Of a stretch of 50,489 nt of DNA, positions 33,001 through 42,000 are shown in pieces (position 1 is the first letter of the stretch; the number at the start of each line of letters is the position of its first letter). The stretch spans positions 1 to 50,489 of the forward strand of contig JBIKWN010000013.1 of NCBI GenBank assembly GCA_044356295.1, given 5' to 3'. The position numbers were made by a program. This stretch comes from Bdellovibrionota bacterium (GTDB taxonomy: Bacteria; Bdellovibrionota_C; UBA2361; JBIKWN01).

Positions 33001-36000
33001 GTAACAGATCAGATGTTGTTATTTCAGATAGCGAATCTCGACCGATCTGATTTCCCCCAAAGATACTTTTTAGGATCATTTTTAAAATGATCAGTTTATC
33101 GGTCACCGAAAAAAATGGTGCTTTGAGAGTAGAAAAAAATAGTTCTGGATGTTTTACAGGATTGCCGATTTTGTGATTTTTAATCCACGCACCTGATTCA
33201 AAGTTACAGAGTTTTAATTTCTCATAACTGATGAATTTAGATGGTGTTTTATAGCTATCAAAGAAAACTTGAAACCCGTTATCTATTTGAAATCCTTCAA
33301 TTTTTTTAGTTTTAATTCGACCGCCAGTTTCATTACTACACTCAAAAATACGGTAGTCGATATGAGCTTTTTCTAGCTCTACTGCTGCGGCGAGCCCAGT
33401 GATGCCGGCTCCTATAATAATTACTGTTGGATTCATACGATATTTTAAAGATAAATATTCTCTATTTGCAACATTTATGTTACTTTTGTGGGGTATTTAA
33501 GTTTAAATCAAATATATGGTTGAAAGCCAAATAAAAACCTTCCAAAAACTTCTTCTAGAATCCCTCTTGAAAGGAGACTCGCAAGCAGTTGGTAACATCT
33601 TGGATGAGTCTCTCGATTCTGAAATATCATTGCAAACACTTTATGTGGATATCTTGCCTGGAGTTCAATGCGCAATTGGAGATATGTGGATAAATGGAAA
33701 GATATCAATTGCTGAAGAGCATCGTGCCACTCAAATCGTACTCGAACATCTCCCGCGTATTCGTCAAAATATTCGTCCAAGAAAACCGTTGGGAGTAAAA
33801 GCTGTTATCGCATCTCTGCCAGGTGATCAACATTTTCTGGGAGGAAGAATTATTAGCGATCTTTTGATTCTTGATGGGTGGGAGGTTGATTTTCTCGGAG
33901 CGGATACACCAATAGATGACATAGTGAATCATGCAAAAAATGTGAATGCTACATTAGTAGGTTTGTCACTTTCTGATTCAAGTTACTTAACGACAGCGCG
34001 AGAAGTGATTTTAAAATTAAAAGCATCAATGCAAGATATAAAAATAATAGTTGGAGGAAGAGGAGTTATGAAAAAAGAAGAAGCAAATACTATTGGAGCT
34101 GACGTGATAGTGTCAGATGGTTCACAAACAATTAATGAGGCAAGAAAGATTGCCGGAATTGAAGGATCTGCCAATGCCCTTTACCAAACCCTTGGGGAAA
34201 TTGGCGCCAAAATTCATCATTACCGTAAATCTCAAAAGATGTCTCAAGAAAAACTATCGGCAGGTTCTGGGCTTGATAGGGCTTACATCAGTTCAGTAGA
34301 GAATGGTAAGCAAAATGTAACTATCGGAGCTTTGCTTAAACTGGCTGATGCATTAGGTGTCGATTTATCCGATCTTATCAATCATAATACTCAACAGAAA
34401 ACTACAAGTTTAAACGCATAAGTATTTTGTAATGTATTTTGTTGATGTATTTATAGAGGTCGCCATCGGCGCGTCGCTACTCATGTTTGTTGGATGGGTT
34501 AGTGCTGTCATCCGCGGCCGCGCCGAAATTGTTGATGTTTTGTGGAGTCTCGGTACTGGGGCGGCAGGAGTTTGGTTTGCCTACCGATTAGATGGAGACG
34601 AGAATAGACGACTTCTTCTTGCAGCATTAACTGGATTATGGGGAATGCGATTAGGGATCCATTTGATTCAAGATAGACTCCTTGCTCCACATGAAGACGG
34701 CAGGTACCAAGATCTAAGAAGATCATGGGGGAGTGCTACAAACAAAAATCTTTTTATTTTTTTCCAACTACAGGCTTTCTTAATTCCATTTCTTGGTACT
34801 GCCGCATTTGCAGTCGCTTCAAATCAGCGTCCTATTTACTGGTATGATTATCTATCCATTATTATTGCTATTATTGCTCTTACTGGGGAAGCAATTGCAG
34901 ATAGTCAATTGAGTACTTATAAAAAAACAGCTAAGCCAGGTGGTATTTGTGATGTAGGTTTGTGGAGTTGGACAAGACATCCGAACTATTTTTTTGAATG
35001 GATGTATTGGATGAGTTTCCCAATTCTTGCTTGGGGAGGAGACTATTTCTGGTTTGTTATTTTATCCCCACTACTGATTTTTTATCTTATTAATTATGTT
35101 ACTGGGATTCCTCCTACAGAAGCCCGAATGCTCGAACGCCGAGGAGAGCCATTTCTTGCATATCAAAAAAGAGTGAGCGCTTTTTGGCCTCGACCTCCTA
35201 AGAAAATTTTATAACTTTTGTTTTGCTCGAATAGTAATAAAGGTATAGTAAATCATGCTTGAAACAATTGTTGAATCAAACCTAGTACCAGATTTCCTTA
35301 TAAGAAAAACAATACATAAGTTCTGTAAAGAAAGACTTGATCAGCAATTATCGCTGATTGAAAAATCGGGATACGATGAAAAGAGATCTTTTGTTCGTTC
35401 TCTTTCAGAAAGTCCTATAGCTATAGTTCCAGAAAAGGCTAACGAGCAGCACTATGAAGTACCCGCTTCATTCTATGATCTCTGTCTAGGTAAAAGAAAA
35501 AAATATAGCTCATGCTACTACGATGAATCAGTTCGCTCACTTGATGAAGCAGAAGAACGAATGCTCGCGCTTTATTTTGAGAGAGCAGAATTTCAAGATG
35601 GACAATCAATCCTTGAACTTGGATGTGGTTGGGGATCCTTAACATTATATCTTGCTGAGCGTTTACCAAATGCTTCAATTACTGGTGTTTCGAATTCACG
35701 TTCACAGAAAGAGTATATATTGTCTGAGGCAAATAAACGTGGGTTATCAAATGTCTCAATTATAACATGCGATATGAATGAGTTTTCGATCGAGAAAAAA
35801 TTCGATCGAATTATTTCTATTGAAATGTTCGAACACATGAGGAATTGGGATAAGCTTTTTCAGCGAGTGTCGAGTTGGCTCAACGACGACGGCAAGTTCT
35901 TTATGCATATTTTTACCCATCGAACGTTTGCTTATCCTTATGAAGATAAAGGTGCTTCAGATTGGATGTCTCGATATTTTTTTAGTGGCGGGATGATGCC

Positions 36001-39000: not shown

Positions 39001-42000
39001 AAAGAGTTTGGAGCCCATGTAACTGGAATTACTCTTTCAACTGAACAGAAAAAAATTGCAGAAGACAAAATGGCTTCTCGCGGTGTCACTGATAGCGTTC
39101 AAATACAGCTTCGTGATTACCGAGACGTCGTCGGAGAATTTGACCGTATTGTTTCAGTCGAAATGATTGAAGCAGTTGGAAAACACTACCTTGGTTCATT
39201 TTTTGAAACAATCGACAGAGTGTTATCTCCGAACGGTATATGTGTTCTGCAAGTGATTGCTTACTCTGACCCTTATTATAAAGAATATCTGGGAAGACAA
39301 GATTGGATCCAGAAACATATATTTCCTGGCAGTCACCTCCCATCACTAACTGCGCTCACCAACGCAATGACCAAGCACTCTAATCTTGTTGTTGATTCAA
39401 TTGAAAACTATGCAAAAGATTATGCATTAACGTTAGCTGAATGGAGAAAGAATTTTAATCTTAAATCCAAAGAGCTAGAAGCTATCGGTTACGATGCTAG
39501 GTTTCAAAGAGCATGGAATTTTTATCTTTCATCCTGTGAAGCTGAATTTTTAACCCGTTGGTTAAGTCTGTATCAAATTGTTCTGACCCGACCTAATAAT
39601 TCTGATTTTTCTGTGAATGATGGGGATGTGAAAGATGCGAACACATCTGAACAAGAACGGAAAGATTATGTTCATTAATAACGGTTAGGGTAGTGGCAAT
39701 GCTATTAATTTAAGAACTTAAGTACCGTGACCTTGAGCGTAGGCCTGAGCGTGACCAAAATAATTTAAGGTCACGCTCAGGCCTACGCTCAAGGTCACGG
39801 GGTAGAAATACCTTAACTTAATGACATTGGGGAATAAAAGTGGCTATCCTAGCTACTATAGTTCTGGATTATATCAATAAAACGCCCAGTAACTTTATCC
39901 CAACCGCCATGTTGGAAAATATAACTTCTGCCACGACCCGATAATGTTTTAAACATTTCTTGATTTGAAAGAAGCGTATGAGCAGTTTCAGCAAATTTAA
40001 TTAAATATTCTTTGGATCCAACCGGCTCAGAGATTAAAATTCCCCTTTCTCCAATTGTCTCGGGTAATCCACCTGAATTTGATGCAATAACTGCACATCC
40101 AGCAGCCTGAGCTTCAAGAGCAACAATACAAGAGGTTTCAACAAATTGATTTGGATAAAAAAGAATAGATGATTTCATCATCTCACGAGCTAATTGACTT
40201 TGAATGCAATTGCCATGAAGGACTACAGATTTATTCTGTGACATTTTATTTTTTAAAGCTTCAAACTGTGCCACTAATGGACCAGAAAACTTTTGTTTAT
40301 CATCATAAACATCAAATCCTCCAAAGACATGAAATTCTGCTTTTGGCTCGAGTTTTTGAAGTAGTTGAAATGCAATAAATGCAAGATGTAACCCTCGATT
40401 GGGGGAGGAAGCATAAAATAATCGATTCGGGAAACGCTCTTCAGTACCAGAAAAGTTTTTTAAATTTACTCCATTTCCTATAAAGAAGATTTTATTTCGA
40501 GGATATCCGCTTTCTTTGCTCAAAACTTCTGCTTGCCACTGACTAACGCAAAAAATCCCATCAAGGGCAACGATCATCCTATGGTCACCGATTCCAAAAT
40601 TAACATATTGCTCAGGTCCATCACCGGTAAGCAAAAATACTTTTTTTGATGGTAATCGGAATCGAGCAGGGCGGTAATCTTTAACTAAGACAAGAGCATC
40701 GAATGGTTTACATGAGTGAATCGATTGTAGAGGACGATAGGTTGGAAGGTTAGCTGCCGTGACTTCAGTGTCCGAATCATAGTATTTTGTGAATACCTCA
40801 ACCTCGTATCCTTTAAGGGCAAGTTCATTGGCAAGATAGATAATACCAGTCTCTGTGCCCCCAAGAGGTCGTTCCTCTAGGCTTTTTCCATTAAATGGAA
40901 GGCAACTTTCACAAAAAAATCCAATACGCTGATGTTTCACAATTGGTTACTATAGGTTAGTGAGTTCAAAAATTCTGTTTCTACAACATCGCTATTTTAA
41001 TCGAGCTGGCACTGAAGAGCATAGCCGTCTTTTATCAAAAGGGCTTGCTAGTAATTTTGATATTTCTATCCTTGCTATTGAGCCACTTCAAAATGGAAGG
41101 AGTGAGATAGTTCTTATTAAAAATGAGACAGTCACCAGCAGATGGGCTGTTCCGACATTAGCCTTTCCTGAAACGCCTACGGAACATGCTGTGTATGAAA
41201 CAATTCTTAATGAAGTACTCTCTGTAGAAGCACCTGACCTCATTCATATTCATCATCTTATGAATTGGCCAATAAAAATTGCTGAAGAATTACAAGCTCA
41301 TTCGATACCTCTGGCTTATACACTTCACGATTATTATGCCATGAGTCCTGAATACACATTTCAATCTGGTGCTGTGCCATTGCACACTGAGTATTATCAA
41401 CAGCGATTTGATTACTTTAAGCAATTACTGAGTTCGATATCGCTTATTGCACCCTCACCATTTGTAGCCGAAATGTATAAAAAAACATTTGGCGTTTCTG
41501 CTTTAGTTGTCCCACATGGAATTGCACCTATTTTAGAATCTGTAAGTAGTTCAGATAAAAATCTAAAAGATAGCGAACCTTCATTTGGATATATTGGTTC
41601 TCTGCTTCCTCAGAAGGGTTTTGATATTTTAATTCGAGCATTTCAGCACTACCGAAAGCAGGGTGGCTTGATGAACATGCATATTTTTGGTGGGGTAGTT
41701 CCAATTCAAGTCAAAGGGATCACGTTTTATGATGCTTATGACGCAAAAGATCTTCATTCAATTATGAAACAGTTTACAGTTGGTATTATCCCATCACGAT
41801 TTCCTGAAACTTTTTGTTTAACCCTATCTGAGCTTTGGGCTGCGGGAAAATATGTCATTGCTAGCAACCAGGGGGCGTTATTCGAGCGGATTGAGAGTGA
41901 AGGAAAACAAGCAGGAGTTACTTATGACTCGAATAGTATTCTTTCACTAGCCGATGCTATGAAAAAAACAGAATTAGAGAAGCCTTGGCTATCGTTTAAA

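Follow-up and report, generated by a model that had tools for sequence, protein, structure and literature searches.

CarH, already in use for green-light optogenetics, is to our knowledge the only B12 photoreceptor with an understood path from light to DNA. In CarH, or class I LitR, of Thermus thermophilus, Myxococcus xanthus and Bacillus megaterium, an N-terminal MerR winged helix precedes a two-part AdoCbl module with a Wx9EH motif and a lower-ligand histidine. A published light-signature of cobalamin-binding domains comprises the motifs GxxW, EH, GxxH and GxxxP, situated between the helical bundle and the Rossmann domain (SignatureFinder; PMC11796333, section 8). The same four motifs occur in CtMerR (8JBS), which has a MerR domain at its N-terminus, and in the photocobilins (8J2X, 8J2W, 8J2Y), which instead carry a biliverdin-binding globin or GGDEF domain and are without a DNA-binding domain. 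AdoCbl is bound and photolysed in all four of these proteins, and light turns the CtMerR tetramer into monomers (PMC11796333, section 10).

The window analyzed here, a stretch of 50,489 nucleotides from a Bdellovibrionota genome, encodes a 301-aa regulator (33516..34421, plus strand) with a C-terminal XRE helix-turn-helix (HTH) domain where CarH has its N-terminal MerR winged helix. Near-identical DNA is present in lake-water metagenomes of three further studies (shares 0.22 to 0.79). Pfam and the translation bear out the survey's finding of a B12-binding_2, B12-binding and XRE HTH architecture without MerR: B12-binding_2 covers residues 13-75 (2.5e-9), B12-binding residues 95-208 (3.3e-19) and HTH_3 residues 235-287 (9e-15; 54.9 bits against a cut-off of 23), and no MerR family is detected in the protein by Pfam, the B12 module beginning at residue 13. 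Together with the match to HTH_31 (38.1 bits, cut-off 27), this places the HTH in the XRE (Cro/C1) family. By profile, alignment and structural model the four-helix bundle extends over nt 33552-33740; the Rossmann B12 domain (nt 33798-34139) is followed by a long linker helix and the HTH (nt 34218-34376), which the AF2 model renders as five short helices over residues 244-288. The NCBIfam model TransRegCarH, whose cut-off is 400 bits, covers residues 7-198 only and scores 67.5. The nearest solved domains of the HTH belong to the controller (C) proteins C.AhdI (1Y7Y, 69 bits) and C.BclI (2B5A, 63.3 bits) of restriction-modification systems, and also to SinR and HipB; unlike the regulator, all these are small dimers that stand alone and lack a sensor domain. 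C proteins bind neighbouring palindromes cooperatively as dimer pairs. We consider it fairly likely that the 301-aa protein is an AdoCbl photoreceptor-repressor with the CarH domain order reversed, which would shut off both promoters of its locus in the dark and release them in light for lipid remodelling.

The B12 module contains W58-x9-E68-H69 (Wx9EH), the classic B12 motif spacing D104-x-H106-xx-G109-x41-S151xS153-x26-G180G181 (with S at position 153, where the motif asks for V or T), and all four light-signature motifs (G55xxW58, E68H69, G103xxH106 and G128xxxP132). The survey had called W58, E68, H69, D104 and H106 invariant and G109 conserved at 90% or more; in a 36-sequence family alignment this stands for W58, E68 and G109, but H69 and H106, like G103, P132 and G55, are merely at or above 90%, and D104 falls below 90% because E replaces it in some members. 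Among 160 homologues at E<=1e-5, each of the 120 listed carries both PF02310 and PF01381, in agreement with the claimed family combining B12-binding and XRE HTH domains. The proposed novelty of the architecture is softened by a 2024 account of light-type B12 domains fused to HTHs on the N- or C-terminal side, in which XRE is unnamed and none is studied (PMC11796333, section 12), and by the JGI automatic name "light-induced transcriptional regulator" of some family members. A close relative of the regulator (P0006, 61% identical) has Q in place of H69 and no His at position 106 in the alignment, so cofactor-free versions can arise within the clade. It is conceivable on this ground that the protein is a cofactor-independent XRE repressor, whose B12 module only oligomerizes, as in CarA of Myxococcus, or takes another ligand; however, this is very improbable given that the window protein has all ligand and cap residues, as do at least 90% of the aligned members.

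Next to W58 stands Ile59, the equivalent of TtCarH His132. According to PMC10442372, His132 becomes the upper ligand after photolysis and is needed for tetramer break-up, the H132A mutant being mostly still a tetramer in light. CtMerR has Arg at this position, yet monomerizes under light (PMC11796333, sections 10-11), and the photocobilins share with it and with the regulator the lack of a His after Trp. In the alignment W-H predominates in the wider family while the window's clade shows I, T, L or E after the Trp, which makes this clade the deviant one. Ile59 weighs against the survey's AdoCbl-dependent, light-released repressor, which draws its support from the motifs, fold, solved relatives, dimer model, site array and AdoCbl supply.

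In a PDB profile search the regulator matched the photocobilins 8j2x and 8j2w (127.6-127.7 bits), the B12 domain of CtMerR (8jbs, 105.5) and 8j2y (105.1) ahead of methyl-corrinoid proteins (86.5), CarH (67.6) and MetH (66.7 bits). These profiles put its B12 module closer to photocobilins and CtMerR (105-128 bits) than to CarH (67.6 bits). The AF2 model (pLDDT 89.2) concurs, with Foldseek aligning it to 8jbs at TM 0.86 (rmsd 2.2 A) and to the TtCarH B12 domain at TM 0.81-0.84. A homodimer model, computed with two copies and without cofactor, scored 0.65 versus 0.00 for the best control, a mark attained by 20 of 30 solved homo-pairs and one of 23 single chains; its runs share at least 97% of contacts with pLDDT of at least 81. 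Its interface joins residues 64-84 to 99-139, a head-to-tail, CarH-like packing that leaves the HTH free, although the model may echo memorized solved structures of CarH and CtMerR.

Across the family the operator is a palindrome, TGT-N12-ACA. Of 79 loci, 39 have a copy scoring 13 bits or more upstream of the regulator, and for 22 of these the second-best site is 31-32 bp distant (null rate 1.6%). The predicted operator consists of two or three such palindromes at intervals of 31-32 bp, in contrast to the tandem direct repeats that serve as CarH operators. In relatives, further TGT-N12-ACA sites precede genes for DICT and DUF2867 proteins, photolyase and F420-quinone reductase. A matrix of 41 sites, all taken from lineages outside the window's genus, yields three operator-like sites in the window: site A (33423..33444, 5.7 bits) runs over the divergent gene's start codon, site B (33454..33475, 3.5 bits) lies 31 bp from A, and site C (33485..33506, -1.9 bits) a further 31 bp from B and 10-31 nt before the regulator ATG. 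At this exact 31-bp spacing the summed score of the array is 7.3, as against -15 to -43 at other spacings; not one of 3000 random windows or 5000 shuffles attains this score, and the array ranks first among the 862 intergenic segments of the genome (runner-up -2.2). The sites are singly weak, and it is their spacing that argues for an operator here.

Site A is partly coding, so its conservation in the relative locus L001 may stem from the protein. Site B, which matches the family palindrome in its right half-site and centre, lies within a conserved block of the window/L001 alignment; the left half of site C resembles the motif of a sister clade, and the matrix of that clade finds no site of 7 bits or more in this region of the window. 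A 12-nt palindrome, AACAT-TT-ATGTT (33470..33481), located by a repeat finder, corresponds to two adjacent half-sites at the B/C junction, but with about nine chance copies expected per genome it is weak evidence alone. Site B also overlaps the -35 and spacer of a sigma-70-like promoter of the divergent gene (33442..33471, minus strand; TTGCAA, 18 nt, TAAAAT), a consensus match only, from a scan that returned 15 sites in the region versus 20.1 expected from shuffles. Its -10 element stops 5 nt short of the ATG, which would allow a leaderless transcript. The same consensus scan located no plus-strand promoter in the region.

The ORF coordinates and Pfam families reproduce the co-directional run of lipid-type genes that the regulator had been said to head. 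On the plus strand it is followed by genes for a DUF1295 membrane protein (34432..35214, 260 aa; Pfam 4.5e-60), a CMAS-family SAM methylase (35255..36289, 344 aa; Pfam 1.8e-42), a FAD amine-oxidase-type enzyme in the position of UfaD (36293..37558, 421 aa; Amino_oxidase 4.5e-19) and a DUF1365-CMAS fusion (37558..39678, 706 aa) that overlaps the preceding gene by 1 nt. The fusion, the only DUF1365 protein of the genome, contains DUF1365, the UfaO family, at residues 16-267 (1.6e-62) and CMAS at 402-674 (5.3e-82; both Pfam), the latter forming part of a full-length CFA-synthase-like region (PRK11705, 298 bits over residues 329-680). On the opposite strand lies a divergent FAD amine-oxidase or phytoene-desaturase-type gene (32192..33436, 414 aa; Amino_oxidase 3e-36), whose best NCBIfam match, HpnE, reaches 76 bits, far under the cut-off of 283. 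It is divergently oriented to the regulator in the window and in loci L001, L004 and L005, and is a probable second target.

Elsewhere in the family such genes are seldom found by the regulator: counted within four ORFs on either side, lipid-type genes occur at five of 74 loci including the window, close to the six of 80 reported by the survey, and the link appears only in the window's genus, in L005 and in one Chloroflexota locus. The family-wide constant is rather the site upstream of the regulator itself. Both observations would suit a regulator acting on itself or on distant genes only, with the adjacent lipid genes under separate control. We regard this as very improbable for the window, where gaps of 10, 40, 3 and -1 nt separate the genes from the regulator to the 706-aa ORF, no terminator-like site was found between them, the arrangement is kept in all three species of the genus as far as contigs extend, and the site array covers both divergent promoters.

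The gene order desaturase-like, DUF1365, methylase equals that of ufaD-ufaO-ufaM of R. palustris, given as RPA2571-2570-2569 in PMC7380195. The asserted match to the proven furan fatty acid pathway holds at the family level, at which Pfam and NCBIfam recognize a CFA-synthase-family methylase, a phytoene-desaturase-related FAD enzyme and DUF1365 encoded together, but no operon protein reaches an NCBIfam equivalog cut-off; the 344-aa methylase, for instance, scores 144 bits against CFA synthase PRK11705 (cut-off 400). In the R. sphaeroides operon, ufaO is followed by the 402-aa RSP1089, described as dispensable for the furan product (PMC7380195). Synteny alone cannot assign the methylation step if RSP1089 is a methylase, as we presume from its size. 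Comparable gene sets answer to light through unrelated sensors: according to PMC7380195 and PMC9758184, the anti-sigma factor system sigmaE-ChrR of Rhodobacter mediates singlet-oxygen or light induction of the same genes, DUF1365-type included, and class II LitR (PplR/PmlR) of Pseudomonas, a B12-free MerR protein acting with a LOV protein, is associated with induction of ufaM, the photolyase gene phrB and a FAD oxidoreductase.

At the 74 loci the regulator most often neighbours genes for a DnaJ-domain protein (18), an AcrB-type transporter (17) or a Zn alcohol dehydrogenase (11), or else cobT, cobS or cobU (8). The last of these, lower-ligand attachment genes that follow the regulator, raise the alternative of a B12-availability sensor, in which AdoCbl or any cobalamin would be a co-repressor reporting supply, like a protein version of a B12 riboswitch, with light irrelevant; B12 binding is moreover the sole property predicted directly from sequence. 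We hold this to be unlikely, since the adenosyl-specific Wx9EH cap is retained family-wide, AdoCbl is photolabile in such pockets in four of four proteins (PMC11796333, section 10), operator copies adjoin photolyase, DICT and DUF2867 genes in relatives, and the window operon has no link to B12 use, its counterparts elsewhere forming the light and singlet-oxygen regulon noted above. The cob neighbours would suit a light sensor too, since photolysed cofactor would need replacing. AdoCbl supply, which the survey had left open, is provided for in the genome by a PduO-type adenosyltransferase (189 bits) alongside MetH and a mutase-type B12 domain.

Under the favoured light-responsive repressor, AdoCbl would be held in the dark between the four-helix bundle and the Rossmann domain, with W58, E68 and H69 capping the adenosyl group and H106 as lower ligand. 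The B12 modules would stack head-to-tail as in CarH, P132 of one copy entering the adenosyl pocket of its partner, and the oligomer would set HTH pairs on two or three palindromic sites at 31-bp spacing. These would blanket the 79-bp region between the divergent gene and the regulator operon, shutting both promoters and, as with CarH beside its photoprotection genes, probably entailing autoregulation. Green, blue or near-UV light would cleave the Co-C bond, loosen the oligomer and abolish cooperative binding, thereby derepressing the transcription units 32192-33436 (minus) and 33516-39678 (plus). Their products (two CMAS methylases, the UfaD-like desaturase, the UfaO-like DUF1365 and DUF1295) could then modify the unsaturated acyl chains of phospholipids in the membrane, the likeliest outcome being methylated or furan fatty acids as singlet oxygen scavengers.

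Taken jointly, the data give about even chances to a large family of B12 photoreceptor-repressors with XRE in place of MerR, spanning at least 394 species-level genomes, mainly of freshwater Bdellovibrionota and marine or sponge Dehalococcoidia/SAR202, in which light would break the link between HTH dimers on palindromes three helical turns apart. Each lineage would have its own regulon. In the window's genus it would serve furan-type lipid remodelling, in the main Bdellovibrionota clade it would contain a conserved DnaJ-domain gene, and in Chloroflexota it would comprise either genes for the cobalamin lower ligand or clusters with photolyase, DICT and DUF2867. A second natural coupling of the same light module to DNA would reveal which features of CarH are general, the contrasts on offer being another HTH class, the other terminus, paired palindromic sites and no bis-His switch. 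If true, the proposal would give Bdellovibrionota their first described light sensor and optogenetics a compact new switch whose operator is defined. One prediction is that daylight is sensed by uncultured Bdellovibrionota of lakes and SAR202 of the ocean via a vitamin which the majority have to acquire. Another is that in the window's genus daylight alters the membrane lipids instead of inducing pigment synthesis, the predicted sensor probably switching on membrane-lipid protection genes in these lake bacteria by day.

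The region at 32192-39678 contains six genes, among them the 301-aa regulator (33516-34421, plus strand), in which Pfam detects a B12-binding_2 domain (residues 13-75), a B12-binding domain (95-208) and a C-terminal XRE HTH (HTH_3, 235-287), with no MerR domain among the matches, as the survey's finding had it. Four genes follow on the same strand with successive gaps of 10, 40, 3 and -1 nt, and by family match encode a DUF1295 protein, a 344-aa CMAS-family methylase, a 421-aa FAD amine-oxidase-type enzyme and, in a single 706-aa frame (37558-39678), DUF1365 (the UfaO family) joined to a full-length CFA-synthase-like methylase. 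A gene for a 414-aa amine-oxidase-type protein (family match) lies divergently on the minus strand, 79 bp upstream of the regulator, and the gene beyond 39678 is convergent with the operon.

The translated regulator contains the motif W58-x9-E68-H69 and a lower-ligand loop, D104-x-H106-xx-G109, from which S151xS153 and G180G181 follow at the classic spacing of the B12-binding motif, as defined in passages of PMC8156234. It also has all four elements (GxxW, EH, GxxH and GxxxP) of the published light signature (PMC11796333). The ligand and cap residues had been described as invariant; in an alignment of 36 members (32-69% identity) this holds for W58 and E68 but not for H69 and H106, which, like G109, G103 and P132, are conserved in at least 90%. 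When the family profile was compared with all solved chains, the photocobilins 8j2x and 8j2w came out on top (127.6-127.7 bits), with 8j2y at 105.1 bits and the B12 domain of CtMerR, the light-responsive protein of Chloracidobacterium (8jbs), at 105.5 bits; methyl-corrinoid proteins reached at most 86.5 bits, CarH 67.6 and MetH 66.7. AdoCbl binding and green-light photolysis have been measured for the proteins of 8j2x, 8j2w, 8j2y and 8jbs, and CtMerR passes from tetramer to monomer under light (PMC11796333). An AF2 model of the regulator (pLDDT 89.2) superimposes on 8jbs with a TM-score of 0.86 at 2.2 Å, and on the B12 domain of Thermus thermophilus CarH (TtCarH) with 0.81-0.84. One difference bears on mechanism: TtCarH has His132 next to the Trp, whereas the regulator has Ile59, and a TtCarH H132A mutant remains mostly tetrameric even in light, according to passages of PMC10442372. 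In the alignment the residue after the Trp is mostly H in the wider family, and I, T, L or E in the window's clade. Ile59 counts against a strict CarH mechanism and weakens the light-sensor reading; it does not refute that reading, since CtMerR has Arg at the equivalent place and yet monomerises (PMC11796333). In P0006, a 61% identical relative, Q replaces H69, there is no His at 106 and the loop reads D-H-C in the alignment; by analogy with CarA and CarH, this may be a cofactor-free, paralogue-like form.

A supply of AdoCbl, which had been left unchecked, is consistent with the gene content of the 93.6% complete genome, which encodes a PduO-type ATP:cob(I)alamin adenosyltransferase (189 bits), MetH and a mutase-type B12 domain; a CobA/BtuR-type adenosyltransferase was not found in it. 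Besides the probable source, three studies have lake-water metagenomes that contain near-identical DNA, and no RNA dataset is among the listed holders.

A two-copy model of the regulator scored 0.65 against 0.00 for the best control, a mark that 20 of 30 solved homo-pairs and one of 23 single chains attain; three runs shared at least 97% of contacts, with pLDDT of at least 81. In the modelled interface helix 64-84 of one copy, with E68 and H69, faces residues 99-139 of the other, which include the His loop and G128xxxP132, and the HTH lies outside. CarH and CtMerR pack in this same head-to-tail way, the neighbour's Pro reaching the adenosyl group (PMC11796333). Because like complexes are already solved, the model's pass shows likeness to them and not binding.

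At E<=1e-5 we recovered 160 matching proteins, and all 120 listed share the B12-XRE HTH architecture, in agreement with what had been claimed for the listed homologues. A relative is encoded in 394 stretches of one-genome-per-species contigs, mostly from freshwater Bdellovibrionota MAGs and Dehalococcoidia/SAR202; the window's order has one copy in 47 of 91 genomes, and its genus in 3 of 3. When only the B12 module served as query, the top clusters were proteins of about 290-310 aa with the module N-terminal, and HTH_3 was present in all five sampled clusters of this form. Lower-ranked clusters comprised stand-alone modules, forms with an unassigned N-terminal domain in front, and HTH_17, ArsR-type, histidine-kinase and GGDEF-EAL fusions; the MerR form was absent from the 23 clusters sampled. 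Our literature search turned up no paper describing a B12 photoreceptor linked to an XRE domain, although reviews or their figures may yet show XRE-type relatives, and passages of PMC8717448 and PMC10979010 give only MerR, HTH_17 and ANTAR as partners. That light-type B12 domains are found fused to HTH domains N-terminally as well as C-terminally has been stated (PMC11796333). The proposal of a new architecture is thus upheld for the XRE link in the literature found, but not for HTH fusion at either end.

From 87 distinct upstream regions, motif discovery yielded the palindrome TGT-N12-ACA with an AT-rich centre, from which a matrix of 41 sites was built with the window's genus excluded. In 39 of 79 loci the 250 nt upstream of the regulator contain a site scoring 13 bits or more, a count that is partly circular as the matrix was derived from such sites. 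Not circular is the spacing: in 22 of these 39 loci exactly 31 or 32 bp separate the best and second-best sites, against 1.6% in shuffled flanks. Five loci (L041, L045, L048, L078 and L080) have extra operator copies, often paired, in front of DICT-domain, photolyase, DUF2867/NmrA and F420H2-quinone-reductase genes, and in the main Bdellovibrionota clade the operator has diverged to TGG-N12-TCA, immediately followed by an extended -10-like box. Paired palindromes at a distance of three helical turns call for two linked HTH dimers, and a light-labile oligomer of the B12 module could supply the link.

By the family matrix the window's own control region lacks a single strong site. Its three best positions in 33380-33560, namely A at 33423 (5.7 bits, partly coding), B at 33454 (3.5 bits) and C at 33485 (-1.9 bits), are exactly 31 bp apart. 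The summed score of this triplet is 7.3, with every other spacing from 24 to 39 giving -15 to -43; the sum was not reached in 3000 random genome windows or in 5000 composition-matched shuffles, and it ranks first among the genome's 862 intergenic segments (runner-up -2.2). The array extends from the divergent gene's start codon to 10 nt short of the regulator's ATG and covers the only promoter-like match there in a consensus scan, TTGCAA-18-TAAAAT on the minus strand; the scan could place no plus-strand promoter. Pairs 31 bp apart recur in the genus relatives L004 (7881/7912) and L001 (3089/3120), and footprinting within the genus covers three species, as a metagenome scan for close relatives gave two real ones among 31 loci. 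A single strong site (19.4 bits) lies between the two genes in L005, a 44% relative that shares the divergent gene. From the array, the genus pairs and the L005 site we read the regulator as acting at both divergent promoters, through candidate sites that are individually weak. The palindrome AACAT-TT-ATGTT was rejected as the operator proper, its half-site centres being only 7 bp apart and about nine chance copies being expected per genome; we read it as two putative abutting half-sites. Boxes resembling -10 elements occur within 33434-33447 and 33503-33518, ending 5-7 nt before the ATG of each divergent gene, neither of which is preceded by a Shine-Dalgarno-like run; both transcripts may be leaderless.

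In Rhodobacter the SAM methylase UfaM, the phytoene-desaturase-related FAD desaturase UfaD and the DUF1365 protein UfaO produce the 9M5 furan fatty acid, FufM adds the second methyl group, and the R. palustris order is ufaD-ufaO-ufaM (passages of PMC7380195). The window repeats this order of the three families, the second and third being joined in one protein, and adds a further methylase and DUF1295. The asserted match to the furan pathway is therefore borne out for families and order but not at equivalog level, as none of the operon proteins reached an NCBIfam equivalog cut-off. In R. sphaeroides RSP1089 (402 aa), the gene after ufaO, is dispensable for the furan product (same source); from its size we guess it to be a methylase, and hence the window's product could be furan, methyl-branched or cyclopropane fatty acids, with the furan reading about evenly balanced against the others. 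Passages of PMC7380195 and PMC9758184 describe control of this gene set by light or singlet oxygen through unrelated regulators: sigmaE-ChrR for the Rhodobacter furan set, and class II LitR for ufaM, phrB and an FAD oxidoreductase in Pseudomonas. Blue light also induces a CFA-synthase gene in V. cholerae (passages of PMC5241685).

Over the window's own genome the family matrix gave 19 matches of at least 12 bits; as only two lie outside ORFs and the highest-scoring are all coding, we take them as chance. The top single match (C55:35820) was rejected, being inside an ORF on a contig that looks phage-derived: C55 28000-44000 encodes ThyX, an HNH endonuclease, an RNA ligase, an intein-bearing 1008-aa protein and many ORFs without a family, and the contig codes in addition for a photolyase-like protein and for a second adenosyltransferase of PduO type, a weak match (46.9 bits). 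Pairs 31-32 bp apart occur at four other places (beside queF and a TonB receptor gene, a collagen-like gene and a UbiA/HDOD pair, and inside one gene), which were not adopted, being weak and of no evident relation. A sister-clade matrix gave less than 7 bits in the window's region, and its top matches were in coding sequence or near a Y-family polymerase gene (C38) or a type IV coupling-protein gene (C74). At C38:64495 a TGGTG-N8-CACCA palindrome, 38 nt upstream of a 93-aa ORF and near that ImuB/UmuC-type gene, could be an SOS-type box belonging to a different regulator. The genome-wide scan had no match of at least 10.5 bits on contig C113, which has a carotenoid-type locus, or around the photolyase at C74:18077. 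The C113 locus (8818-13224) is a four-gene minus-strand operon including a phytoene/squalene-synthase-family gene, with a 17-nt perfect hairpin-like palindrome in its upstream region.

Within four ORFs on either side of the regulator, lipid genes of the window's type occur in 5 of 74 loci (the window, L001, L004, L005 and L051, L005 contributing only the divergent gene before its contig ends), in keeping with the earlier caveat that this link is confined to few lineages. Some photoprotection-type neighbour is found in 22 of 74. Photolyase and pyrimidine-dimer glycosylase are each present in four loci, TudS-DUF1722 (RudS-type; PMC11417400) in three, ERG4/ERG24-type reductases in six and Zn alcohol dehydrogenase in 11. 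A DnaJ-domain gene is present in 18. In the main Bdellovibrionota clade (L006-L028, G040-G075), where one family has the regulator in 30 of its 36 genomes, the regulator gene is in every case divergent from one for a 346-aa protein with an N-terminal DnaJ domain as its sole recognisable part, and housekeeping genes (CmoB-like methyltransferase, ApaG, Mur ligase, Mla) lie downstream. In Dehalococcoidia (loci such as L036, L047 and L072) an AcrB-type RND transporter gene is directly 3' of the regulator in 17 of the 74 loci, and cobT-cobS(-cobU) in eight; the latter placement would put attachment of the cobalamin lower ligand under light or B12 control. These counts make the regulon lineage-specific; the family-wide constant is probable self-control via a paired operator. 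The sensor module and the regulatory logic are already known, and the output domain and where it sits, as well as the design of the operator and the regulon, are not previously described.
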